Source of the DNA: a virus
Taxonomy: Duplodnaviria; Caudoviricetes
Length of the DNA: 64,000 bases
Virus record (IMG/VR): IMGVR_UViG_2862465376_000001
Location: 92,950 to 156,949 of that record
Strand: one strand, 5' to 3'
The notes beneath the pieces were generated by a model. The model was not told the DNA's origin. It did not search any database and worked only from the letters and a program-made list of their open reading frames with translations. Each line of letters starts with the position of its first letter. Positions within the stretch are counted from its first letter, which is position 1. Below, piece by piece: positions 2,165 to 31,299 of the stretch. Both the position numbers and the translations under genes were made by a program.

Positions 2165-5100
2165 GTGCTGCGCCTCATTACCTCCTACGCACCCGCCGAC
2201 GCTCCTTATGTGCAGGTCGGCGACCTTCGCACCACTGCACCGGCCCTCGTCGAGCATGACGGAGACGGCACCCGCTGGTTCCTGACGCCAGCAACGAACC
2301 CACTCGGCGCGAGGCTTCCGCTCTGGAACCGGGCTGAGCGCGATGGAGCGGCAGGCATCCTCATCCACCTGGTCAACGGCGTGCTGGCCGTCCCCGCGCA
2401 CCTTGTCGAGGAGCACAGCGGAGCCCAGCCCGGACAGATCCTCGACCTCAGCAACGTGCCCACTGCCGCCTTCGAGGACGCGCCGACCTACCACGAGGTC
2501 CTGGACCAGCTCGAAGCCGCCCAGGACCCGCCCAAGACGTCCTCCGGGTTCGTGCACCTCCACACGCACAGCGAGTACAGCCCGCTCGACGGCCTGTCCC
2601 GCATGGACGAGATCCTCCGCGAGGTCACCCGCCACGGCCAGACCGCCGTCGCCATCACCGACCACGGCACCTGCGCCGGGCACCCCGAGCTGCAGCGCGC
2701 GGCCGACAAGGCCGGGGTCAAGCCGGTCTTCGGCATCGAGGCGTACCTGTGCGACGACCGCGTCATCCGCGCCGAGAAGGGCGACAAGGAGTTGCAGGAC
2801 AAGCTCCGCAACGACTACTGGCACGTCTGCCTCTTCGCCGAGAACGAGACCGGCCTGCGCAACATCTGGGCCGCCAGCACCGAGTCCTTCCGCGACGGCT
2901 TCTACTTCCGGCCCCGCATGGACTGGGACACCCTCGGCCGCTTCAGCGAGGGCGTCATTGCCTCCACCGGCTGCCTGCGCGGCCCCGTCGCCGTCGCCAT
3001 CAAGACCGGAGACATGGAGCTGGCCCGCCAGCGCCTGACCCGGCTCATGGACCTCTACCCGGGCCGCCTGTACGTCGAGCTGCAGCCCAACGACATGCCC
3101 GACCAGGTCAACCTCAACCAGGCCCTCGTCTCCCTGGCCGCCGAGTTCGGCCTGCCGCTGCTGGCCACCGTCGACAGCCACTTCCCGACCGCCGACGACG
3201 CCCACGCCCACGACGTCTGGATCGCCTGCCAGACCAACAAGGACGTCCAGGACGAAGGCGACCTCTTCGCCGAGGACCTGAACCTCTACGTCATGGGCGA
3301 GGCCGAGGTCCGCGCCGGACTCGCCTACCTCGGCGAGCGCGTCGTCGAGGAGGCCATCGCCAACACCACGGCGCTGGCCGACCGCTGCAACGCCCGCATC
3401 GAAGGCGACACGACCACGCCCTCCTTCACCGGCGACCCGGCCGAGGACGAACGACGGCTGAACGCCCTGTGCATCGCCAACTGGGACCGGCTGCCCGCCA
3501 GCGCCCAGGTCGGCGCATCCGGCTCACAGCGCATCTACCGCGACCGCTACATGCGGGAGATGGACCTGCTGGTCGAGAAGGGCTTCTGCGGCTACTACCT
3601 CATGGTCGCAGACTACGTCGGCTGGGCGAAGGACCACGGCATCCTCGTCGGCCCCGGCCGGGGGAGCGGCGGCGGCTCGCTGGTTGCCTACCTCGCCCGC
3701 ATCACCTCGCTCGACCCGGTCCGCCACGACCTGCTCTTCGAGCGGTTCCTGACCCGGGGCCGCGCGGGCCTGCCGGACTTCGACGTGGACTTCCCCGCCT
3801 CGAAGAAGGCCGAGATCCTCGGCTACCTCCGCGAGCGCTGGGGCGAGAAGCAGGTCGTCTCCATCGGCTCCGAGCTGCGCCTGAAGAACAAGGCGGTCAT
3901 CAACGAGCTGGTCCGCGCGCTCGCCTCCCAGCTCCCCGAGGGCGCCGCCGCCGACCTCCGCCAGGTCTCCACCCTCATCGACGAGGCCGAAGCCGGGACC
4001 GCCGGACTCGGCATGTCCTGGGAGGACCTCTGGGCCCAGCACGCCGACCAGCTCCAGCCGTTCGCCGACCGCTACCCCGAGCTGTTCGCCATGGCCGAGC
4101 GCCTGGTCGGCCGCCTGAAGTCCTACGGCCGCCACGCCGCCGGAGTCGTCATCTCCACCGGCGCCCCGCTCACCGACTGGCTGCCGATGCGCACCATCGA
4201 CGGCGAAGAGCAGATGGTGACCCAGTGGGCCATGGGCGACGTCGAGGCCATCGGCCTGGTCAAGTTCGACATCCTCACCCTGCGCACCCTCGACACCATC
4301 CAGCAGACCCTCGACCTGGTCCGTGACCAGCGCCACTACGAGATCGACCTGGAGGCCTTCGAGGCCGAGTTCGAGGACCCGCTGGTCTGGGACGAGCTGC
4401 AGGGCGCCCACACCCTCGGCGTCTTCCAGGTCGAGACCCACTCCGGGACCCGCCTGTGCGAGCGCATGCGCCCAGGCAACGTCGCCGAGCTGGCCGACAT
4501 GGTCACCATCGTCCGCCCCGGCCCCATGAACTCGGGCCTGACCGACGCCTACCTCCGCCGCCGCGCGGGCGAGCAGGCCGTCTCCTTCCCCGACGAGCGC
4601 CTGCGCCGCGTTCTGGAGCCCACCTGGGGCGCCATGATCTACCAGGAGCAGGTCATGGCCGTCACCCGGCTCCTGGCCGGGTACGACGAGTCCGAGGCCG
4701 ACTACGTCCGCCGCATCCTCGGCAAGAAGAAGGTCTCCGCGATCGCCGAGGCCGGGCAGACGTTCCTGGAGCGAGTCGACATGCCGCAGGAGGCTGCCGA
4801 GCGTCTGTGGAACCAGATGGCCGAGTTCTCCAAGTACGGCTTCAACAAGTCCCACGCCTACGCGTACGCGTTCCTCGCGTACTGGACCGCGTTCCTGAAG
4901 GTCAATTACCCGCGAGAGTTCCTCGTCGCCGCCATGAGCACCGTCGACAAGGACCGCGTCCCCGAGTTCGTCAAGGAGGCCCGGCGCCTCGACGTGGACG
5001 TCCTCCCACCGGACATCAACCGGTCCGGCGCGGGCTTCCGCCCCGACCCCGACGCCTACGCGGTCCGCTACGGTCTCGATTCGGTAAAGGGCGTGGGGTC

Positions 5101-5857
5101 GGCCGCCGTCGCCGACCTACAAGCGGGCCAGCCGTATACAACCTGGGACGACTTCACCGAGCGCAAGGGCCCCAAGGCCAACGCAGGAGTCGTCGCCCTC
5201 CTCGCCCGCGTCGGCGCCTTCGACACCCTCGTCGACAACCGGCGCGGTCTGGAAGCCAAGCTGCTCGCCGCCAAGACCGGCGACGACGCCCAGTGCGTCC
5301 ACAAGAGGATAGAGACGGCCCCAGGCGCACTGCAGATCCAGAACGTCTGGTGCACCTTCGACTGGGCCAGCGAGCCCGCGCCGATCAACTCGCGCACCGG
5401 CAAGCTGCTCAAGCGCAAGCCGCTGCCCAAGCGCTGCACCAAGGCATGCCGCCAGTACACCGCACCGCCGCCGATGGAGATCCACAGCATCGATCCGTAC
5501 ACGCCGGTCGACGTACGGACCATCGAGCACGAGATGCTCGGCACCTACCTCTCCAGCACCCCGTTCGACGACCTCGGCGAGCAGGACCGCGCCACCCTCC
5601 GCGCGCAGGCCGAGCTGCTGGCCACCGGCCCGAACGGCACCTACTACGTCGCCGCGATCGTCGCCGGAGCCCGGCCGCACCGGTCCGGGGAGATGGGCTT
5701 CCTGACCCTGGAGACCGAGGTCTCCACTCTCCGCGCCGCCGTGTTCCGCGACGCCTGGACCGTCGAGCAGCGCCGCTTCACCAAGGGCGCCCTGTGCCTG
5801 GCCGAACTCCGCAAAACCGACCGGGGCCTGAGCCTCGTCACCTACCAGCCCCTCTGA
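2165..5857 (+). CDS. dnaE: DNA polymerase III alpha subunit
   Basis: PHP motif FVHLHTHSEYSPLDG; GPGRGSGGGSLVAY; PDFDVDF; KFDILTL; YGFNKSHA. Confidence 0.97.
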   Translation: MLRLITSYAPADAPYVQVGDLRTTAPALVEHDGDGTRWFLTPATNPLGARLPLWNRAERDGAAGILIHLVNGVLAVPAHLVEEHSGAQPGQILDLSNVPTAAFEDAPTYHEVLDQLEAAQDPPKTSSGFVHLHTHSEYSPLDGLSRMDEILREVTRHGQTAVAITDHGTCAGHPELQRAADKAGVKPVFGIEAYLCDDRVIRAEKGDKELQDKLRNDYWHVCLFAENETGLRNIWAASTESFRDGFYFRPRMDWDTLGRFSEGVIASTGCLRGPVAVAIKTGDMELARQRLTRLMDLYPGRLYVELQPNDMPDQVNLNQALVSLAAEFGLPLLATVDSHFPTADDAHAHDVWIACQTNKDVQDEGDLFAEDLNLYVMGEAEVRAGLAYLGERVVEEAIANTTALADRCNARIEGDTTTPSFTGDPAEDERRLNALCIANWDRLPASAQVGASGSQRIYRDRYMREMDLLVEKGFCGYYLMVADYVGWAKDHGILVGPGRGSGGGSLVAYLARITSLDPVRHDLLFERFLTRGRAGLPDFDVDFPASKKAEILGYLRERWGEKQVVSIGSELRLKNKAVINELVRALASQLPEGAAADLRQVSTLIDEAEAGTAGLGMSWEDLWAQHADQLQPFADRYPELFAMAERLVGRLKSYGRHAAGVVISTGAPLTDWLPMRTIDGEEQMVTQWAMGDVEAIGLVKFDILTLRTLDTIQQTLDLVRDQRHYEIDLEAFEAEFEDPLVWDELQGAHTLGVFQVETHSGTRLCERMRPGNVAELADMVTIVRPGPMNSGLTDAYLRRRAGEQAVSFPDERLRRVLEPTWGAMIYQEQVMAVTRLLAGYDESEADYVRRILGKKKVSAIAEAGQTFLERVDMPQEAAERLWNQMAEFSKYGFNKSHAYAYAFLAYWTAFLKVNYPREFLVAAMSTVDKDRVPEFVKEARRLDVDVLPPDINRSGAGFRPDPDAYAVRYGLDSVKGVGSAAVADLQAGQPYTTWDDFTERKGPKANAGVVALLARVGAFDTLVDNRRGLEAKLLAAKTGDDAQCVHKRIETAPGALQIQNVWCTFDWASEPAPINSRTGKLLKRKPLPKRCTKACRQYTAPPPMEIHSIDPYTPVDVRTIEHEMLGTYLSSTPFDDLGEQDRATLRAQAELLATGPNGTYYVAAIVAGARPHRSGEMGFLTLETEVSTLRAAVFRDAWTVEQRRFTKGALCLAELRKTDRGLSLVTYQPL

Positions 5858-10838: not shown

Positions 10839-11607
10839 GAACGCCGTCCAGCAGTGCGCGTTCCCCAAGAACTTCGTGGTCCGCCTGGAGTCGTACGCCG
10901 CCAAGCGCGAGCCCGACGGCTGGTTCCACCCGAGCACCCATCCGACGATGGACGAGCGGAAGCTGTACTACTACCTCGCCCACCCCGAGAAGTGGAACGA
11001 GCCCGAGTGGGACTACGGCCCCCGGATGTCCGTCCTCGTCGGCACGATCATGCACGAGGTCGTCCAGACCGTCATGATCAAGATGGGCCTCCTCGTCGCC
11101 CCGAAGGGCACCTGCGTCGCCTGCGGCAAGCCCCACGGCAAGGGCAAGGGGAAGTGCGACGAGTGGGGCGTACGCGACGACCTCCTCGGACGGCGCGGCC
11201 ACATGGACGGCCTCCTCGACATCCCCGGCTGGTGCGAGCCCGGCGCGGGCATCTTCGACCTCAAGACCGCCGCCCCCTCCTCCCTGCGGGGCATCGAGAG
11301 CCACGACCTGGACGCCTTCAGGCTCAAGTGGCCCTACTACTACGGCCAGGCCCAGGAGTACATGGCCCTCACCGGCAAACTCAAGGCCCTGATTCTCTTC
11401 CTCGCCATGAGCGACGGATGGAAGATGGTCGAGTTCACCATCCCGCGCGACGACCTGTACATCGCCCGCCTGGAAGCGAAGTACCGTGCCGTCAGGCAGT
11501 ACGTCGAGATGGGAACTCCGCCACCCGTCGCCTGCTGCACCGCCAAGGCAGCAGCCCGCAAGTGCCCCGCCAGCACCTGCTCCGTCAAGATCGGATTCGC
11601 CGCATGA
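10759..11607 (+). CDS. PD-(D/E)XK exonuclease (Cas4/RecB-like)
   Basis: FHPS, GTIMHE, GHMDG, FDLKT, QAQEYM, C-terminal Cys cluster. Confidence 0.75.
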   Translation: MAAPVFTPSFRRVVADSQKLVLVPLIENAVQQCAFPKNFVVRLESYAAKREPDGWFHPSTHPTMDERKLYYYLAHPEKWNEPEWDYGPRMSVLVGTIMHEVVQTVMIKMGLLVAPKGTCVACGKPHGKGKGKCDEWGVRDDLLGRRGHMDGLLDIPGWCEPGAGIFDLKTAAPSSLRGIESHDLDAFRLKWPYYYGQAQEYMALTGKLKALILFLAMSDGWKMVEFTIPRDDLYIARLEAKYRAVRQYVEMGTPPPVACCTAKAAARKCPASTCSVKIGFAA

Positions 11608-18038: not shown

Positions 18039-18635
18039 GTGACCGCTGCCAGCGAGTGCGTCGGCAAGATCGTGAGTATCGAACGAATCGACGCAGACTA
18101 CCCCAGCTATCCGGCCTACCCCGAAGGTGAGTACCTGGTCAGTCACGCAACCGACAGCAAGTTCTGCGGGGTTCGCATCAACCGAGGGCACAAGCACGGA
18201 GGCTTTACCGCGCTTGCGCTTGCGGGTGCCGCAATCACCCAAGGCGTGCCCCTGACCGGCGACGACGCCTACAGGATCTACCGAGTCAGAGGCGTCGAGT
18301 CATGGATGGCGAAGTCCCTGGACGCCCTCTCCGCCGAGATCGCCTTCAACAGAGAGGACCTGCGTCAGCAGCCACCTAGCGACCCCTCCTTCTGGGAGAT
18401 GGCCGCACAGAGGGTCCTCAAGCTCCGCACCCTGCTGGAACGTGCAGAAATCACCAGCGACCCTGGCGTCAAGCCTTCATGCGCCTACCCCGGCTGCTGC
18501 AGGCAGCCCGCCCAGGCCCTGGAGGGGCAGGGCCGGGACGAACTGCCTGTCCTGGACGTCTACCTGCCGCCGGGCGCCGCCGTCCATGCCCGCCCCGGTT
18601 ACATCCTGCGGGTCCACCACGACGCGGCGGCCTGA
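18039..18635 (+). CDS. Hypothetical protein
   Basis: Fits operon; atypical codon usage in 5' half. Confidence 0.45.
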   Translation: MTAASECVGKIVSIERIDADYPSYPAYPEGEYLVSHATDSKFCGVRINRGHKHGGFTALALAGAAITQGVPLTGDDAYRIYRVRGVESWMAKSLDALSAEIAFNREDLRQQPPSDPSFWEMAAQRVLKLRTLLERAEITSDPGVKPSCAYPGCCRQPAQALEGQGRDELPVLDVYLPPGAAVHARPGYILRVHHDAAA

Positions 18636-18685
18636 CGCTGTCCCCGCGCGCCCTCCCCGCCCCAAGAGGCGAGGAGGGCGCCTTC

Positions 18686-20884
18686 ATGAGCACGCCGGAA
18701 GACACATCGCCGCTGGCCGGGTTCGACCCCACCGCGATCCACCACCTGTTCCTCGGGCTCGACGTCCCCGACCCGATCACCTTCGTCGTCTCACCGAAGT
18801 ACCTGAGCAGGCCCAACCTGTACCCCCGACAGGCCACCCTTCTGAAATGCTTTTTTCTCAGAGAGGACCTGTTCACCGAGTACGACTACCGCGTCGTCGC
18901 CGAGTGGGACGAGGCCTACCGCACCGCCAAGAGCGCCAACGAGCAGCGCGCCGCCCGCGCCGCCGCCCTCGCCGAAGAGCAGGACCCCGAAGCCGCCCTC
19001 GCGGCCGAGGTCGACGACATCATGACCGACGCCCTCGACGAGCTGGCCCAGCAGGTCCTCCTCGAAGGCAACGAAGACGCCCCCAAGATGCCCCTGTCCG
19101 GCACCCCGGACATCCTCGGCCGCATGCGCGCCTGCAAGGCGCTCGGCTACAGCTGGTTCAAAGAGATCCTCCTGGTCATGGGCCGCCGCGCCGGGAAGGG
19201 CCACATCAGCGCCCTGGCCATGGCGTACGTCCTGTGGTGCTACATGGCCAAGGGCGACCCCCAGGAGCACTACGGCGTCGACCGCGACAAGAAGCTCGCC
19301 GCCCTGATCTTCGCGGGCAAGCGCGACCAGGCCAAGCAGAACCTCTGGCGCGACTTCGTCAACGTCGTCACCGGAGCCCCCTGCTTCGCCCCCTACATCG
19401 CCAGCTCCCTCGGCGAGAAGCTGTCCGTCTACGCCCCCCACGACTTCGTCCGCATGGAGGAGATGCGCAAGAAGGGCATCAAGACCGCCATGGACATGGC
19501 CACCTTCGAGATCCTCCCGAAGGAATCCACCGTCATGGCCGGACGAGGCCCCGCCTCCTTCATCCTCGGCTTCGACGAGATGGCCCACGTCGTCAACGCG
19601 GGCGCCAACCGCTCCGCAGGCGAGGTCTACGACGCCTCCACCCCCTCCCTCGACCAGTTCGGCAAGGACGGCTTCATCGTCGAACCCAGCTCGCCGTGGG
19701 AAATGAGCGGCAAGTTCTACGACAACTGGCTGCGCGCCACCAGCTTCGAAGACGACGGCACCCCCACCTACCCCGCCGTCATGATGATCCAGCTCCCCAG
19801 CTGGGACATCTACCTCGACTGGCAGATCGCCCACGAACTGCCCCTCTTCCCCGAAGGCTTCCAGGGCGACAACGCCGAGTACGAGAACGCCCCCCTCCCC
19901 GGCTTCCGCGTCCTCAAGGGCGCCATCCAGACCTACGACGAAGAGATGCGCAAGCTGGAGAAGGCCGACCCCGACACCTTCAAGGTCGAACGCCGCGCCC
20001 AGTGGGCCACCGTCCTCGACGCCTACCTCGACCCCGCCAAGGTCGAAGCCGTCTTCTCCCCCTGGTACGCCCGCCCCGAACGCTACGGCAGCCCCCTCAT
20101 CGTCCCCACCGAGCGCGGCGTCCTCGCCTACGTCTACAAGGGCCACGCCGACCCCAGCTCCGTGAACTGCCGCTTCGGCATCGCCGTCGGCCACACCGAG
20201 ACCGACGACGAGGGGCGCCCCCACGCCGTCTTCGACAAGATCCACCACTTCGATCCGGCCGACTTCCCGAATCACACCATCGACTACGAAGAGGTCGAGG
20301 ACTGGATCTGGGAGGAGATCATCAGCGTCTACCAGCCCGAGGACTTCACGTTCGACCAGTATCAGAGTGTCGGCAGCATTCAGAAACTCGTCAAACAGGT
20401 CGCCCGCGCCCGCCTGGCCAAGCGGGTCAACATCTGGGAGCGCACCGCCACCAACCAGCTGAACTGGAAGTACGCCGAGACCTTCAAGGCCGCCATCAAC
20501 CTCGGCCTCGTCCACGCCCCCGCCTACGAGGACGGCGAACTGGAACTCAAGTTCCTGCAGAAACCGCCAGGCATCAACCGCGTCGACCACCCCACCGTCG
20601 GACCGGTCCAGACCAAAGACATCGCCGACGCGATCATGATCACCACCTACGCCCTCATCGGCGACTGGATCAGCGGCTACAAGGAGCAGCTCAACGCCGC
20701 CAGCGCCCGAGGCGCCATGCAGGGCGGCCTGCACGGATCCAGCCCGCACAGCCCCGAAATGACCTCGGCAGACCACGACCTCCAGGGCCGCCTCGACGCC
20801 TTGCGCCAGTTCACCCGCACCCGCACCGGCCGCCCCGGATGGGAACAGGGACTCGGCCGCACCCGGACCGGATATCGCCGTTGA
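18686..20884 (+). CDS. Terminase large subunit
   Basis: YPRQ; Walker A MGRRAGKG; Walker B ILGFDEMAH; SSP; nuclease HADPS, FTFDQYQS, KDIADA. Confidence 0.85.
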   Translation: MSTPEDTSPLAGFDPTAIHHLFLGLDVPDPITFVVSPKYLSRPNLYPRQATLLKCFFLREDLFTEYDYRVVAEWDEAYRTAKSANEQRAARAAALAEEQDPEAALAAEVDDIMTDALDELAQQVLLEGNEDAPKMPLSGTPDILGRMRACKALGYSWFKEILLVMGRRAGKGHISALAMAYVLWCYMAKGDPQEHYGVDRDKKLAALIFAGKRDQAKQNLWRDFVNVVTGAPCFAPYIASSLGEKLSVYAPHDFVRMEEMRKKGIKTAMDMATFEILPKESTVMAGRGPASFILGFDEMAHVVNAGANRSAGEVYDASTPSLDQFGKDGFIVEPSSPWEMSGKFYDNWLRATSFEDDGTPTYPAVMMIQLPSWDIYLDWQIAHELPLFPEGFQGDNAEYENAPLPGFRVLKGAIQTYDEEMRKLEKADPDTFKVERRAQWATVLDAYLDPAKVEAVFSPWYARPERYGSPLIVPTERGVLAYVYKGHADPSSVNCRFGIAVGHTETDDEGRPHAVFDKIHHFDPADFPNHTIDYEEVEDWIWEEIISVYQPEDFTFDQYQSVGSIQKLVKQVARARLAKRVNIWERTATNQLNWKYAETFKAAINLGLVHAPAYEDGELELKFLQKPPGINRVDHPTVGPVQTKDIADAIMITTYALIGDWISGYKEQLNAASARGAMQGGLHGSSPHSPEMTSADHDLQGRLDALRQFTRTRTGRPGWEQGLGRTRTGYRR

Positions 20885-25956: not shown

Positions 25957-26931
25957 GTGATGACCGCCTCCAAGCGTACCTGGACCGACACGGCCAAGGC
26001 CACAATCACCACCACCGACTGGGACAAGACCCTCACCGACGGCGGCATCTACCTCCTCGGCCTCGGAGGCTTCTACGTCGGCTACCAGGTCCTCCACACC
26101 CAGGCCCTCGCCGTCGGCTTCCCCCAGGACCAGGCCGTTGTCGTCGCCGCCCTCGCCGACCTCGCCATCCTGCTCTACTCCCGCAAGGCCGTCCGCGAGG
26201 TCAGAGCCGGACGCTCCGCCCGGGTCATCCGCACCCTCGTCGCCCTCTTCTCCCTCGCCACCTTCGGCCTCCAGCTCCGCGACGCCTGGCCCGACCCCCT
26301 CTCCGTCACCTTCCACGCCCTGCCCCCCGCCGTCTGGATCATCGGCCACGAGATGATGCTGCGCGGCGACCTCCGCGACGCCAAGGCCGCCAAGCGCGAC
26401 CAGCAGATCGCCGACGGCCTCCGCCCCGCACCCCTCCCGGCCATCCGCCTGACCTGGTGGCTCCTCGACCCGTTCCACACCTTCAAGGTCTGGCGCCGCA
26501 CCAAGCTGTGGGAGGTCCCCCAGGAGGCCGTCATCCGCCACGAGGCCACCAAGCTGCAGGCGAAGAACAAGGACATCCCCCTCGCCTGGCAGCGCGTCCT
26601 CCTGGACACCCCGGCCGACAACGACGAGCCCGAGGCCCGCACTCGCGCACAGCAGGACTCCCAGAAGCAGGCCGCCTTCGCCGTCACGCTCTACCGCCAG
26701 TCCTCCCGCGACAAGGTCCCCACCGACGAGATGATGGACTTCCTCGCCGCCCTGCCGCCCGCCCCCGCCGAGGGCCGCCCCCTCGACAAGGCCCGCGACT
26801 ACGTAACCCTCGTCGAACAGGAGGCTGACACCCGCGACATCAAGGTCACCGGCGTCTTCCTCGGAGCCCTCCTCGGCGTCGACCCCAGCTACATCTCCCG
26901 CCTGAAGAAGGCCGCCCCCGTCGGCGCCTGA
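25957..26931 (+). CDS. DUF2637-type (plasmid Spd-like) membrane protein
   Basis: Four TM helices; HALPPAVW; IRLTWWLLDPFHTFKVWRRTKLWE; C-terminal HTH. Confidence 0.7.
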   Translation: MMTASKRTWTDTAKATITTTDWDKTLTDGGIYLLGLGGFYVGYQVLHTQALAVGFPQDQAVVVAALADLAILLYSRKAVREVRAGRSARVIRTLVALFSLATFGLQLRDAWPDPLSVTFHALPPAVWIIGHEMMLRGDLRDAKAAKRDQQIADGLRPAPLPAIRLTWWLLDPFHTFKVWRRTKLWEVPQEAVIRHEATKLQAKNKDIPLAWQRVLLDTPADNDEPEARTRAQQDSQKQAAFAVTLYRQSSRDKVPTDEMMDFLAALPPAPAEGRPLDKARDYVTLVEQEADTRDIKVTGVFLGALLGVDPSYISRLKKAAPVGA

Positions 26932-26950
26932 TCCCGATACGATGAACACA

Positions 26951-26990
26951 GCAGGGCCCCGGCGAGCGTGACGGCTCACCGGGGCCCTGC
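26951..26990. terminator. Bidirectional hairpin terminator
   Basis: GCAGGGCCCCGG...CCGGGGCCCTGC between convergent genes. Confidence 0.7.
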
Positions 26991-26998
26991 TGCCGTTC

Positions 26999-27352
26999 TC
27001 AGATGCTGTAGTACGCCCGGTTCAGCGTGTACAGCTCGTCCGCGAGCGGCGCCAGCATGTCGTCCCCCGCCTTCCGGCCGCACAGCGTGTCCAGATCCGA
27101 CGAGAACTGCTTCAGCGTGCTCGCCGACGGCGCCCGGTCCCCCTCCGCGCCGTCCGCACCCTTCGCGTTCACCAGCAGCTCCTCGGCCGCATCCCACCGC
27201 TCGGTGTCATCCATCCGCCCGGCCCAGTCCGAACACGTCCGCGCCCCGTACGGCACCGAACTGCTCTCCCCGCCGTCGCCGGAGCCCCCGCATGCCGACA
27301 CCAGCACCACCACGGCGGCGGCCGCCACGGCCAGACCCGATCTGCGCATCAT
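26999..27352 (-). CDS. Putative lipoprotein
   Basis: Lipobox VSAC after a hydrophobic stretch. Confidence 0.65.
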   Translation of the reverse strand: MMRRSGLAVAAAAVVVLVSACGGSGDGGESSSVPYGARTCSDWAGRMDDTERWDAAEELLVNAKGADGAEGDRAPSASTLKQFSSDLDTLCGRKAGDDMLAPLADELYTLNRAYYSI

Positions 27353-27475
27353 CCCCACCCTCCTGCCGGGCCTCCCCAGCCCGCGTGGGGACATTGAAGC
27401 ACTCGCCTCGGAACTTGCCGAAAACGGCCACTTTCCTGTCCGAGGAAAGTGGCCGTTTCAGGAAACCTTGCCGGA

Positions 27476-27805
27476 TCAGGCAGAGTCGCCGATCCGCTCC
27501 ACGTCGCCTGTCGCCGCCAGGCTCAGCTCCACGTCGTTGTCGAAGAGCACCCGGTACGGGAACGGGGACACGTACCGGCGCACGAGCGTGATGCGCCCCG
27601 GCGCCCCGGCGGGCACGTCGTAGGGGACCCGGCAGTCCTCACCCTCCTGTTCCAGGTCCTCGTCAATGTACGAGCCGCGTAGCCGCCGCACCGCCTGCAC
27701 CCGGTCACCCTCCCTCAGCGTGAGCGAGCCGACGTGCACGCGCCGGGCCACCTCCAGCTTCTCCTCGAAGGTCAGGGTGTCGAGCTTGGCGTCGAGGGTG
27801 CTCAT
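27476..27805 (-). CDS. Hypothetical protein
   Basis: Coupled to upstream ORF; codon bias. Confidence 0.55.
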   Translation of the reverse strand: MSTLDAKLDTLTFEEKLEVARRVHVGSLTLREGDRVQAVRRLRGSYIDEDLEQEGEDCRVPYDVPAGAPGRITLVRRYVSPFPYRVLFDNDVELSLAATGDVERIGDSA

Positions 27806-28158
27806 CGCGGCAGTGCTCCATTCGGTCGGTCGGGGAAGTCGGCGATCGGGCTGCAGGGGATCGTCCAGGTGTCCGGCCCGGTCCGCGTCCACCCAGCCGT
27901 CGCCACGGCGCTGAGCTTGTCGACCGGGTCGTCGAAACGTTGGGGGTCACCGGCCGACCGATCCGGCATGAACCCCCGCTCGATCAGCCGGTACCCTAGC
28001 CCGCCGCCCGGAATGTAGTCCGGGCCGGTGCTGTCCTCAACGACCATCACGTACTCGTCGTCGATGCCGGTGCCCTCGACGGTCAGCCACCACCGGCCCT
28101 TCTTGTCGGCCCGCGCCGTGGCGGTGCGGACATCGGCGGCGGTCTCGGTCTCGCTCAT
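27802..28158 (-). CDS. Hypothetical protein
   Basis: AGGAGG RBS. Confidence 0.6.
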   Translation of the reverse strand: MSETETAADVRTATARADKKGRWWLTVEGTGIDDEYVMVVEDSTGPDYIPGGGLGYRLIERGFMPDRSAGDPQRFDDPVDKLSAVATAGWTRTGPDTWTIPCSPIADFPDRPNGALPR

Positions 28159-28240
28159 CGGTTCCTCCTGGCGGGAAGTGAGCCCCCATCATCTCGCGGA
28201 AGCTCCTCCGGCCGCGCGAGATTCTGCTAACTTCGTAGAC

Positions 28241-28546
28241 GTGCTCCCCGCGACAGCGGGGATGGCCCCAGCCTCAGGGGCGTGCACAACTGCTCCCCGC
28301 ACCTGCGGGGATGGCCCTCGTTAAGGGCAGAGGTGCATTGTTCCCCGCATCTGCGGGGGTGTACCGGTTGACGAGCACGGTGGTTGAGTGCCCGGAGACT
28401 CTTCCCCGCCGACGCGGGGGTGGCTCGGCTTGGTACTTCGAGTAGTCCCCGCACTGGCGGGGGTGGCTCCGCTCCGGCGGAGGTGGATCGCAACGGCGCA
28501 AGCCACGTGGTCAGCAAGATCGCTCCGCGCACGCGGAGGTGAAGGG
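28241..28546 (+). CRISPR. Orphan type I-E-like CRISPR mini-array: 7 divergent repeats, irregular spacers
   Basis: 29-nt repeats such as GTGCTCCCCGCGACAGCGGGGATGGCCCC start at 28241, 28290, 28338, 28399, 28442, 28462 and 28518; no cas operon in the window. Confidence 0.85.
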
Positions 28547-28573
28547 CCCCGACCTCTTCCGGGGCCCTTCTTC
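28541..28573. terminator. Hairpin terminator closing the array
   Basis: GAAGGGCCCCG-N8-CGGGGCCCTTC. Confidence 0.7.
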
Positions 28574-28705
28574 ATGTCCGGCACAGGATCACCACGGCGG
28601 CGGCCAGGAGCAGGACGGTGCCCCAGAATCCTCCGATGAGGACCAGGGCGGCGCGGGCGTAGGGGTGCAGCGGTGTGTGGCGGGTCACGGCGCCCAGTGT
28701 GCCCG

Positions 28706-29548
28706 CTACGGCTTGGTTTCTTCCAGTTCGCCGAAGGGACTGGGGGAGAGGGCGACCATGTCGGGCTTGATCCGGGCGGGCAGCTCGGGCACGTCAGGGT
28801 CGGGGCAGGCGAGCGCGGCGGCCACGGCCTGGTGCAGCACGGTGCGCGGGGTGGCGTTGGAGTCGAGTCCGTGGCCCCGGTAGCTGACCAGCAGCGGTCC
28901 CCGGTCCTGGTAGGAGTGCGGCTCCTTGAAGGTGCGCACCGGCCTGCCGTCGTCGTCCACGTCCAGGTACTGCTTCACGGCCGCGCGGATCTCGTCGGGG
29001 AAGGCGAGGCGGCGGGTGCCGCCGCCCTTCTGCCAGACGTCGGCCGTCATGCGGTGCTGCTCGAAGACGAGGTCCTGGACGGTCAGTTCGGTGATCTGCC
29101 GTGAGCGCAGGCCGACCAGCAGCAGGTAGACGAGGAGCCGGTCGCGGGCGGGCAGCTGGTCGGCGCCGTAGCGGATGAGTGCCATCTGGCCGTCGGTGAG
29201 CTTCTCGGTCCTGGGGGCGTTCCAGGCGCCGGTGCCCATCTTGGGGTGCACTGGCGTGGTCTGCACGCAGTTCTTCTCGCGGGCGTAGGCGTAGAAGGCG
29301 CCGACGGCCGACACTCGCAGCGCCCGGGTGCGTGCGCCGCCGCCCTTCATGTCGAGCCAGGTGACGAAGTGGGAGGGCTGGGCGCGCCAGGCGCCGATGT
29401 GGACGGTGTCCTCGATGAAGTCGAGCCATGCCTTGGCGTGCTCGGCGTACCGCTCGGGGCTGGTGCCCTGCAGGAGGCGTCCCTGTTTGCCCCGGCGGTC
29501 GGGGTTGTGTTCGTCGAGCCAGGTGGCCAGCACGGTGCGCGCGTCCAT
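28706..29548 (-). CDS. Tyrosine-recombinase-family protein lacking C-terminal catalytic motifs
   Basis: SAM-like N-terminus, RDRLLVYLLLVGLRSRQI, KGGGTR; no HxxR, LGH or terminal Tyr. Confidence 0.7.
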   Translation of the reverse strand: MDARTVLATWLDEHNPDRRGKQGRLLQGTSPERYAEHAKAWLDFIEDTVHIGAWRAQPSHFVTWLDMKGGGARTRALRVSAVGAFYAYAREKNCVQTTPVHPKMGTGAWNAPRTEKLTDGQMALIRYGADQLPARDRLLVYLLLVGLRSRQITELTVQDLVFEQHRMTADVWQKGGGTRRLAFPDEIRAAVKQYLDVDDDGRPVRTFKEPHSYQDRGPLLVSYRGHGLDSNATPRTVLHQAVAAALACPDPDVPELPARIKPDMVALSPSPFGELEETKP

Positions 29549-29590
29549 GGCGCACCATCCTGGCATGCGGCTACGACAGGGGGCGCAGCG

Positions 29591-30352
29591 TCAGGTGCTG
29601 CTGCTGCGGTCGTTGATGGCTGGGGGACGGAAGTTGTAGCGCTGCGGGTTGCGGAATTCGTCGTCGAGCCGTTCTACGAGCCATGCTCGGATGATCTGTG
29701 TGACCTTCGGGGCCCACGTCAGTTTGCCGTGGGCCAGCAGTTCGTGCCCTAGGTCCTCGGCCTGCTTCCGCAAGGCGGGGTCCACTCGGATGTTCAGGTT
29801 GACCGACTTCGCCCCGTCGCCTCGGGCTGCTCGTACGGGCTGCTTAGGGGTGAACCGTCCGGCGAGGAACTCCTGCAGCGCCTGGTGTGCCTCGCCGTCA
29901 AGGCTGGCTCCGGAGATTACTGCAGCGGCCTTGATGTCGTCCCTCAGTGTTTCCGGCAGTCTCAGGGGCAGGTTCGGCTTCTTCTGGATCACCCTCTTTT
30001 GGTTGAGGCGGCGGGCGAAGTCTTCCCCCTCTTCGGTGAGCATGGAGGCCACTGCCTCGGCCATCTGTCGGAGCGAGGCGGGAGCCGGGAATGCAGGGGA
30101 GGGCAGGGCTGAGTCGATGGTCGTCATGTCTGCCAGCTTGTGCAGAGTGGCAGCGGCCTGCTGAATCTGTTCGGCACGTTGCTGGTCGTGGAGATCTTGC
30201 CTCTCGTCCTCAGCAAGGTGCCCCTCGCAGGACGGCTGCGTTCCAGCGGGGTAATAGCACGCGGGTTCCCGACAGAGGACTCCGTCGCTGTAGCGCAGGC
30301 ACAGCAGCTCGCTGGTGACAGTGGAGTGCATGGACCGCACTCTACTCAGCAT
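29591..30352 (-). CDS. Tandem ribbon-helix-helix DNA-binding protein (start uncertain)
   Basis: PNLPLRLPETLRDDIKAAA and VNLNIRVDPALRKQAE. Confidence 0.55.
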   Translation of the reverse strand: MLSRVRSMHSTVTSELLCLRYSDGVLCREPACYYPAGTQPSCEGHLAEDERQDLHDQQRAEQIQQAAATLHKLADMTTIDSALPSPAFPAPASLRQMAEAVASMLTEEGEDFARRLNQKRVIQKKPNLPLRLPETLRDDIKAAAVISGASLDGEAHQALQEFLAGRFTPKQPVRAARGDGAKSVNLNIRVDPALRKQAEDLGHELLAHGKLTWAPKVTQIIRAWLVERLDDEFRNPQRYNFRPPAINDRSSST

Positions 30353-30354
30353 CG

Positions 30355-30474
30355 ACTTTATACAAAAGCCGGACCCTCACCCCGATGCCGGGTCGGCTGA
30401 GGACAGTGCGGAACGTGCGGGGCGACGCCGCGCGTGTGCGGGTAAGAGGGTGGTGTCCGGCTTTTGTATAAAGT
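30355..30474. repeat. Perfect 20-bp inverted repeat, 80-bp spacer
   Basis: ACTTTATACAAAAGCCGGAC (30355-30374) and GTCCGGCTTTTGTATAAAGT (30455-30474). Confidence 0.9.
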
Positions 30475-30657
30475 GACCGTATCGAGGGGAAACGCGGGTG
30501 CCCCGGGGTGGATCAGGAGGAGAACTCCGGCTGGCGGGCCGGTACGGCGGAGACCCCGATCCTGCCACGGCCGCCACCACGAACGCCAACACCACGGCGC
30601 TGACGACCGGTAGGCTCCCCCGCATGAGGAGCACCGAGCCCGACCCGGGAGGGAGAC

Positions 30658-31299
30658 ATGAACAAAAAGGGCATGCGCAAACACCGCATCGGCATTGCCT
30701 ACGTGAAGGAATTCCTTGACCAGCACGGCCACAGCCGCATTCCGCCAAGGACCGTGGTGGACGGCCTGGACGTCAGCGCCTGGTGGTCCTCCGTCCGTAC
30801 CCACCTGCGTGAGATGCCCGAGATCAAACGCGCCGACATCCTCGCCCTCGGCGCCCTCGGCGCCGACCTGCGCACCGAGAAGCAGATCAAGGCAGAGCGC
30901 CTGGCGGCCGAGGCCCAGTGCCGCGCACTGAAGGCCCTCAAGCACGCCGAGCACGAGGCGCAGCAATTCGAGCAGGCACGCCAGAAGGCCCTGCGTCCGC
31001 ACCAGGCCGTCCTGGACGCCGTCGAGGCCTTCGCCGCCGACCGCCTGCACACCCTCGTCCCCCTGGGCGCCACCACCCCCACCGGCATCGCCTACGGCCG
31101 CGTCCTCGACCGCTGGCGGGAGAACCCCCAGGGCCTCGGCAGCCACCTGAAGCAAGCTCTGGAAGACATCCCGTACTGGACCTGGACCCGCACCCCGCCC
31201 CCTGTCCGGCCAGCCCCGCGCCCCCGGCCCGCGCCCATCCCGGCCGACATCACCCGCATGAACCGCACCGGCCTGCGCCAGTTCCTGCCCGCAGACTGA
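30658..31299 (+). CDS. Helicase-associated (HA) domain protein
   Basis: FLDQHGHSRIP..VVDGLDVSAWW; LEDIPYWTW. Confidence 0.55.
   Translation: MNKKGMRKHRIGIAYVKEFLDQHGHSRIPPRTVVDGLDVSAWWSSVRTHLREMPEIKRADILALGALGADLRTEKQIKAERLAAEAQCRALKALKHAEHEAQQFEQARQKALRPHQAVLDAVEAFAADRLHTLVPLGATTPTGIAYGRVLDRWRENPQGLGSHLKQALEDIPYWTWTRTPPPVRPAPRPRPAPIPADITRMNRTGLRQFLPAD

Follow-up and report, generated by a model that had tools for sequence, protein, structure and literature searches.

Results

A 64,000-nucleotide stretch of the IMG/VR virus record IMGVR_UViG_2862465376_000001 (positions 92,950 to 156,949 of the record; Duplodnaviria, Caudoviricetes), which we call in its entirety the window, carries seven hairpins like those of type I-E CRISPR repeats. 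The hairpins lie at 28241-28546 and, with a terminator-like structure, form a unit of 28241-28575 (Table 1). For the reasons developed here, this unit probably encodes a multiplexed array of CRISPR RNA (crRNA)-like anti-CRISPR RNAs of the Cracr type, which would hijack the Cascade complex of the host and which is carried by a phage or phage-plasmid of Streptomyces.

The window has a G+C content of 69% and encodes a large terminase (18380-20884), tyrosine recombinases, and proteins resembling the DnaE polymerase and RecA. Synteny links the region to pRLB1-9.1, a Streptomyces plasmid of 154 kb that has no array at that position. A tblastn search of the window with eight Cas proteins from one Streptomyces I-E locus gave no match, in agreement with a preliminary description of this DNA, which had noted no cas operon. 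From these genes, the plasmid synteny, and the lack of Cas matches, the element can be classed as a cas-less phage or phage-plasmid of Streptomyces.

Five of the hairpins have the form CCCCGC-N4-GCGGGG, where shuffled sequences lead one to expect 0.07, and two have the form CTCCGC-N4-GCGGAG (expectation, 0.02); neither motif occurs in the rest of the 64-kb window. Successive hairpins start 49, 48, 61, 43, 20, and 56 nt apart, and the stretch as a whole folds better than all of its shuffled versions (z = -4.5). Motif counts and spacing thus confirm what had been described earlier: seven differing I-E-like repeats that keep their stems, with the loops and spacer lengths given in Table 1. The hairpin flanks fit the I-E repeat consensus (R1, for example, is GTGCTCCCCGC..GCGGGGATGGCCCC). 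With a bona fide I-E array the unit shares 29-nt repeat-like units, the I-E stem-loop, an 8-nt handle, and the orientation of a crRNA gene. Such an array has near-identical repeats and spacers of about 32 nt, however, whereas here all seven repeats differ, the spacers range from 14 to 32 nt and are shared by unrelated elements (see below), and there are no adjacent cas genes and no usual leader. We therefore refer to the intervening sequences as pseudo-spacers.

The preliminary description had also pointed to a -10 element upstream and a terminator downstream. Both are conserved in an orthologous element, although a promoter and terminator consensus scanner called neither TGCTAACTT nor the terminator-like hairpin. 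The inverted repeat directly 5' of the -10 falls in an 82-bp divergent promoter region and may be an operator for the array or for the divergent 118-aa gene. A search of 26000-31000 against Rfam at a permissive E-value returned no family. Pairing between the handle (GCCCC) and the spacer start (GGGGC) was considered as a second, handle-occluding hairpin; this idea was dropped, as host regulators pair likewise, the pairing arising because the guides match G-rich ribosome-binding sites.

Table 1. Features of the array and its immediate surroundings (window coordinates)
Feature	Position	Strand	Remarks
Divergent 118-aa gene	27802-28158	-	76% identical in L188, where it accompanies the array
8-bp inverted repeat ATCTCGCG / CGCGAGAT	28191-28198 and 28215-28222		directly 5' of the array -10
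Extended -10-like element TGCTAACTT	28225-28233	+	7 nt 5' of R1; identical in L188
R1, repeat-like unit	28241-28269	+	hairpin 28246-28261, loop GACA; 5'-handle ATGGCCCC
Pseudo-spacer S1, 20 nt, AGCCTCAGGGGCGTGCACAA	28270-28289	+	near copy of a host CreA-like crRNA-like RNA
R2	28290-28318	+	hairpin 28295-28310, loop ACCT; handle ATGGCCCT
Pseudo-spacer S2, 19 nt, CGTTAAGGGCAGAGGTGCA	28319-28337	+	near copy of a host CreR-like RNA; matches a casA 5' region
R3	28338-28366	+	hairpin 28343-28358, loop ATCT; handle GTGTACCG
Pseudo-spacer S3, 32 nt	28367-28398	+	no cognate found
R4	28399-28427	+	hairpin 28404-28419, loop CGAC; GGGGGTG; handle GTGGCTCG
Pseudo-spacer S4, 14 nt, GCTTGGTACTTCGA	28428-28441	+	belongs to the 14-nt CreR-like class
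R5, fused to R6, no spacer	28442-28490	+	R5 hairpin 28447-28462, loop ACTG; abuts hairpin 6
R6	within 28442-28490	+	hairpin 28467-28482, CTCCGC stem, loop TCCG; handle GTGGATCG
Pseudo-spacer S6, 27 nt, CAACGGCGCAAGCC...	28491-28517	+	no cognate found
R7, terminal hairpin	28518-28546	+	hairpin 28523-28538, CTCCGC stem, loop GCAC
Terminator-like stem-loop GGGCCCCG-N8-CGGGGCCC with T-rich tail TTCTTCAT	28544-28575		from sequence and fold; GC-rich

Conservation of the array in an orthologous element

The orthologous element, L188, whose flanks are about 87% identical to the window, retains all seven hairpins, the leader, and the terminator. The two arrays differ at 21 positions in 305 nt, and not one of these differences breaks a stem. 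A single stem base of R2 has changed from C to T, which retains a G-U pair; in R7, three of the four loop bases have changed around an intact stem. Of the 21 differences, eight fall in the distal half of S3 and only one, at position 6, among its first 16 nt; S6 is conserved at 26 of its 27 positions. In type I Cascade every sixth guide base is flipped out and unpaired, and the lone proximal change in S3 falls on such a base. The terminator stem is identical and its loop wholly different; likewise, the inverted repeat has kept its arms unchanged, with 6 differences in the 16 nt that separate them.

Since the stems and the parts of the spacers proximal to the protospacer-adjacent motif (PAM) are kept and the loops and distal spacer parts drift, this substitution pattern marks the array as one under selection and not a decaying CRISPR array. 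The pattern bears out the earlier proposal of a selected RNA cassette on a cas-less mobile element, including its expectation that related elements would not show random decay of the stems. A non-functional remnant, either a decaying orphan CRISPR array or recombined fragments of a host cas locus, would be in keeping with repeats that are all different, with irregular spacers, and with the lack of an array at the syntenic position of pRLB1-9.1. It accords poorly, however, with unbroken stems between elements of about 87% identity, with changes that cluster in loops and distal spacer parts, with a conserved promoter-like motif and terminator of the array's own, and with the same architecture and pseudo-spacer families in many unrelated contexts. 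We consider a remnant very improbable.

Host counterparts of the pseudo-spacers

Host loci were drawn from a sample of 401 Streptomyces genomes, 167 of which encode Cse1/CasA; about 120 casA-adjacent regions were examined. The unpublished genome G131 supports none of the claims made here. Many of these regions hold one adjoining crRNA-like unit with a pseudo-spacer of 14, 20-21, or 32 nt. The non-standard spacer lengths pointed out in the preliminary description are inherited from these host regulators and are no special feature of the phage.

S1 is identical at 17 of 20 positions, and at 13 of the 14 proximal ones, to units in genomes G223 and G030; the host crRNA-like RNA (crlRNA; L271/L278) has the same handle and the same next repeat. 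In three genomes (G223, G030, and G126) the S1-like host unit reads ATGGCCCC followed by AGCCTTAGGGGCGT... and then CTGCTCCCCGCACCT, and in the latter two it lies about 650 nt from casA. S1 would target a site, also present in three genomes, that consists of the PAM AAC and AGCCT[A/T]AGGGGAGT, and positions 6 and 12 are the sole mismatches; in these genomes it matches AAC-AGCCTAAGGGGAGT at the 5' region of a small open reading frame (ORF). The site lies about 340 nt upstream of the host crlRNA on the same strand, and in G126 pseudo-spacer and target both read AGTCT. It overlaps the ribosome-binding site of a conserved ORF of 69-73 aa with two hydrophobic helices, which sits between the target and the RNA gene, divergent from casA. 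The product has no family match and, by analogy with CreTA, is likely to be a CreT-like, CRISPR-guarding toxin.

Small hydrophobic ORFs of 63-73 aa, without a Pfam family, recur between a PAM-flanked target and a crRNA-like RNA gene (L271:944-1165 (-), L279:1665-1874 (-), and L282:1666-1881 (-), each with two predicted helices), and similar ones are found at L244 ~11190-11500 (+) and L371:2236-2427 (+). They are divergent from casA or lie 3' of cas6e and resemble a CreTA-type guard module with a membrane-protein toxin. As a separate observation on these loci, about one-third of the best Cse1 matches sit in open frames of 1500-1800 aa, which suggests Cas3-Cse1 fusions in many Streptomyces I-E loci.

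For S2, the cognate is a crlRNA reading ATGGCCCT followed by CGTTACGGGCAGAG..., downstream of cas6e on the S. anthocyanicus plasmid NZ_CP109103.1 (L371); S2 is identical to it at 13 of 14 positions. The S2 target, AAC-CGTTAAGGGCAAAGAGG, is found on the same plasmid about 10 nt before the casA start (L372 7328), with a match of AAC plus 13 bp. S2 agrees with the casA site at 13 of 16 effective positions, including position 6, where the host RNA does not.

The remaining pseudo-spacers are related to host units less closely. Host crlRNAs with 14-nt guides adjoin casA in seven genomes, each with a PAM (AAG, AAT, or AAC) and a 10-11-bp target about 130 nt upstream, and guides and targets covary from genome to genome. 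S4 falls in this class by its length, by the repeats on either side, and by agreement at 9 of the first 11 bases (closest, G081, GCTTGTCACTTGAT). When the 401 genomes were searched by pattern for host units carrying the seed of S4, no exact cognate came to light; the five matches had no hairpins and were set aside as chance. S3 is similar, though not identical, to the 32-nt crlRNA of L244; on plasmid NZ_CP108001, a resembling 32-nt unit with a different seed lies between cas3 and casA and has its own AAG-flanked target and small hydrophobic frame. For S6, neither the plasmid search nor the host-locus scan produced a cognate.

That scan, for a PAM plus seed in the roughly 120 host loci, matched only the S1 and S2 sites and returned none for S3, S4, or S6. 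Because it returns nothing else, the S1 and S2 matches are not background, and false positives must be rare. A blastn search of S3 and S6 against plasmids gave nothing beyond chance (SARP regulator genes, for example).

Could the guides instead serve ends of the element's own, directing Cascade against rival plasmids or phages or regulating its own genes? Virus mini-arrays are used in virus-virus conflicts, and both S3, with its canonical 32 nt, and S6, with 27 nt, are without an identified target. But no pseudo-spacer has a seed match within the 64-kb window, 50,697 phage records and 72,556 plasmids contained no S3 or S6 protospacer beyond chance, and S3 has diverged in its distal half in L188, which does not suit a full-length cleaving guide. 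This explanation appears improbable to us.

Repeat classes

Three classes can be told apart among the regular arrays of the host sample, with repeats CTGCTCCCCGC..GCGGGGATGGTCCC, GTCCTCCCCGCCGACGCGGGGGTGTTCCG, and GTCCGCTCCGCGCATGCGGAGATGTTCCG, to which R1/R2, R4, and R6/R7 correspond in that order. R1 (GTGCTCCCCGCgacaGCGGGGATGGCCCC) is nearly equal to the repeat of a real Streptomyces plasmid array and belongs to the class of the natural repeat [C/G]TGCTCCCCGC..GCGGGGATGG[T/C]CCC. The CGAC loop and GGGGGTG 3' flank of R4 match the natural repeat GTCCTCCCCGCCGACGCGGGGGTGTTCCG and are also present in an array adjoining cas3, and the stem class of R7 matches the natural repeat GTCCGCTCCGCGCATGCGGAG. 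The stems of the last two repeats had been described as compensatory changes. Their pairing is indeed intact, but they are not merely drift, as CTCCGC/GCGGAG is the third natural Streptomyces class. These repeats, then, resemble host repeats of one CRISPR type, and by their likeness to natural classes the array can be said to sample several host I-E types, which fits the earlier suggestion that its units are tuned to different host variants.

Related arrays in other elements

A scan of IMG/VR viral contigs for two such hairpins 20-40 nt apart yielded many I-E-like arrays with varied loops and short periods. Dozens of contigs in IMG/VR have such arrays, as do several genome contigs of Streptomyces, and pseudo-spacer families recur among them; of the genome-contig matches listed for the same two-hairpin pattern, most were unrelated hairpins with CCCCGC, from Sphingomonas and other Proteobacteria. 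Families common to several elements are AGYYTCAGGGGCGTGCA (20 nt), GCTTGSTACTYSSA (14 nt), and GTTGA-N-GRGCACGG (32 nt). Spacers held in common by unrelated elements are not acquired immunity spacers. The S3 family (GTTGA-N-GRGCA-N-GG) is also found in L204, L277, and L243, and the S4 14-mer family in L188, L187, and L175. A fused pair of the R5/R6 type followed by GTGGATCG is also present in L188, L204, L175, and L305; of S6, only [C/A]AACG is shared with the last three. Motifs analogous to the -10 of the array (TGCTAACAT or TGCCATAGT) precede six of the related arrays (L224, L204, L187, L168, L238, and L281).

Across 56 heterogeneous arrays the periods peak at 43 (6 cases), 48-50 (56), 55-56 (6), and 60-62 nt (26), the search pattern having demanded that every locus include a short interval; this skews the totals, though not the peaks within the range that the pattern allowed. 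These peaks correspond to guides of about 14, 20, 26, and 32 nt. A cultivated Streptomyces phage-plasmid, ZL12 (L373, GQ919031.1, ~83.79-84.0 kb), has an unannotated, three-hairpin I-E-like mini-array with a terminator and periods of about 61 and 49 nt, which could be an experimental model; an S. tubercidicus plasmid also carries a three-hairpin unit with a terminator.

Longer relatives exist as well: an array of 10 hairpins in a Streptomyces genome contig (L277, G313:C20, +, 1360-1890) and one of 8 in an IMG/VR contig (L204, +, 4717-5160). These two and L305 (G204:C2, ~1500-1700) end in the 3' module seen in the window, in which a fused pair of hairpins is followed by GTGGATCG, a hairpin with the CTCCGC stem, and a terminator. 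Stems of the longer relatives include the compensatory variants CCCCAC/GTGGGG and CCCTGC/GCAGGG.

Expression and neighboring genes

A contig of 249 nt from a public soil metatranscriptome is 95-99% identical to the array and confined to 28256-28503, leaving the flanking genes uncovered. We take it as a weak hint of expression. The public runs also yielded the probable source run and two soil DNA relatives.

The 118-aa gene has no Pfam or PHROG match, and no homologue adjoins any array other than that of L188. Without a family, and absent as it is beside other arrays, it is not claimed as a protein partner of the array. An ORF of 38 aa, VTRHTPLHPYARAALVLIGGFWGTVLLLAAAVVILCRT, with one hydrophobic helix lies at 28572-28688 (-), convergent with the array; the two use one terminator hairpin, and the DNA of the ORF is conserved in L188. 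Further downstream, at 28701-30488, L188 has unrelated DNA in place of a tyrosine recombinase gene (28706-29566) and the gene that follows it, and it also carries an extra 1.8 kb near window position 27401. Between the two elements, the array and the 118-aa gene behave as one conserved block moving among variable neighbors.

Discussion

The explanation that we favor, and consider probable, is an array of Cracr-type guides acting through the Cascade of the host. In this model, the array would be transcribed from its own promoter near 28240 to the terminator near 28570, and host Cas6e would cut the transcript at the seven I-E hairpins. Each unit, in which a pseudo-spacer (14, 19-20, 27, or 32 nt) stands between the 8-nt handle and a 3' hairpin, would then enter host Cascade and displace immune crRNAs. 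Since pairing with the target is limited to about 10-13 PAM-proximal bp of the pseudo-spacer, the loaded complex would bind DNA without cleavage by Cas3 and thus act as a repressor. The consequence would be threefold: Cas proteins would be titrated, repression of cas genes would be tightened, and the guarding toxin would be kept silent, across the several I-E variants that the element possibly meets. The idea that short guides repress without cleavage was already part of the preliminary description, and it is consistent with the matches of S1 and S2 to PAM-flanked creT-like and casA sites over 12-13 effective bp.

The preliminary description had left open whether the array sequesters Cas proteins or represses targets. 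Repression fits what we have found; pure sequestration is the weaker half of that proposal, given the conserved PAM-proximal parts of the spacers. Phages and plasmids are known to encode solitary repeat-unit RNA anti-CRISPRs, or Racrs (Camara-Wilpert et al., Nature 2023, PMC10651486), and by analogy the hairpins here could do nothing more than soak up Cas6e and other Cascade subunits, with the intervening sequences not serving as guides. Seven Cas6e-type hairpins of three repeat classes in one transcript are what a pure decoy might look like. R5 and R6 are fused without a spacer and R7 is followed only by the terminator, so that these units resemble the spacer-less units of Racrs, and titration also features in the Cracr model (bioRxiv 10.1101/2024.10.29.618823). 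Racrs sequester, however, and need no target match, whereas the other units here carry conserved pseudo-spacers that match host targets. A pure decoy would not explain why the PAM-proximal halves of the pseudo-spacers are conserved as distal parts and loops drift, why S1 and S2 reproduce the seeds of host regulators and match PAM-flanked host targets, or why spacer lengths follow the host regulator classes. We regard it as rather unlikely as the whole explanation. A decoy role probably contributes to the function of the array, but it leaves the seed conservation and the target matches unexplained.

The Cracr explanation also has the closest precedent. Cracr arrays turn the effector into a repressor of the cas promoter or of a guarding toxin, and Liu et al. 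(bioRxiv 10.1101/2024.10.29.618823) describe 30 of them, with no more than three I-E pseudo-spacers, each directed against its own variant within one type. Cas-dependent processing and seed-dependent anti-CRISPR activity were shown there for an array of a Salmonella prophage, and arrays with two or three I-E pseudo-spacers were shown to undergo Cas processing and to repress PcasA (bioRxiv 10.1101/2024.10.29.618823). Like the CracrIE of the Salmonella enterica Se29 prophage, the array in the window lies on a cas-less mobile element outside any CRISPR-Cas locus, has degenerate I-E repeats, and has short pseudo-spacers that copy host CreR/CreA, several of them apparently directed at variants of one type. 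S1 and S2 share at least 9 PAM-proximal bases, the threshold used for Cracrs, with host CreR/CreA and are partially complementary to PAM-flanked sites at a casA or putative guarding-toxin promoter; S4 shares 9 of 11 bases, and S3 and S6 fall short. The array differs from Se29 CracrIE in that it seems to join a toxin-silencing mimic (S1) with a casA-silencing mimic (S2), in that its repeats belong to three classes, one of them with the CTCCGC stem, and in that it has a 14-nt pseudo-spacer and the spacer-less fused pair. Compared with the arrays of Liu et al., it is larger (five pseudo-spacers and seven hairpins), and the main text of that paper does not name Streptomyces.

The host units from which S1 and S2 seem to be copied are themselves of a described kind. 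CreR occurs in I-B, I-E, and V-A systems (bioRxiv 10.1101/2023.03.10.532045). Like CreR and the CreA of CreTA modules, the array is built of units in which a short pseudo-spacer is preceded by a degenerate repeat and followed by another repeat, and the units nearly copied by S1 and S2 lie beside Streptomyces casA or cas6e. Host units, however, stand singly inside cas loci near their targets, whereas the array strings several together, and the window has neither cas genes nor a promoter with a seed match in cis, as would be expected of a host CreTA or CreR module.

Several points weigh against our explanation. First, transcription, Cas6e processing, Cascade loading, and the anti-CRISPR effect are predictions from sequence, and the RNA-library contig comes from a relative and could be DNA carry-over, contigs showing no strand, ends, or level. 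Second, of the five pseudo-spacers only S1 and S2 have an identified cognate; S3 and S4 match host regulators at the family level only (9 of 12 effective positions), and S6 has no match at all. Third, the R5 unit has no spacer, so that at least this unit provides no guide. Fourth, the seed bases are not all fixed: L188 has other bases at S1 position 1 and at S4 positions 9 and 11. Fifth, the host comparison covers sampled Streptomyces loci. Finally, the toxin role of the 69-73-aa protein is drawn from its position and the CreTA analogy, and the protein has no family match.

As to novelty, the array is an unusually large example of the Cracr kind already described; the principle put forward in the preliminary description is not new, being that of Liu et al. 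(bioRxiv 10.1101/2024.10.29.618823). We entertain a bolder form of the idea only tentatively. One transcript may be a "master key" against Streptomyces I-E immunity, combining CreA-like mimics, which would silence a previously undescribed CreT-like gene for a small two-helix membrane protein beside casA, with CreR-like mimics of cas autoregulators, in three repeat classes and with guides stepping by six bases (14, 20, 26-27, and 32), which would imply Cascade with fewer Cas7 subunits. If so, the array might provide an inventory of I-E regulatory circuits circulating in the host population. Short guides imply a Cascade with fewer backbone subunits, for which shortened E. coli crRNAs provide a basis in I-E. 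For I-F, Liu et al. report complexes with fewer backbone subunits (bioRxiv 10.1101/2024.10.29.618823), and the recurring 6-nt steps in guide length would be natural examples of such shortened complexes.

In general, these findings would extend Cracr counter-defense to phages and phage-plasmids of Streptomyces, with an array about twice the reported length. They also point to host circuits that seem to be undescribed in this genus, namely casA-adjacent crRNA-like regulators with guides of 14, 20, or 32 nt, some of which pair with a small membrane-protein gene resembling a CRISPR-guarding toxin. The native I-E systems of Streptomyces are used in genome engineering, and the pairs of pseudo-spacer and target identified here constitute testable predictions on CRISPR autoregulation in an industrially important genus.

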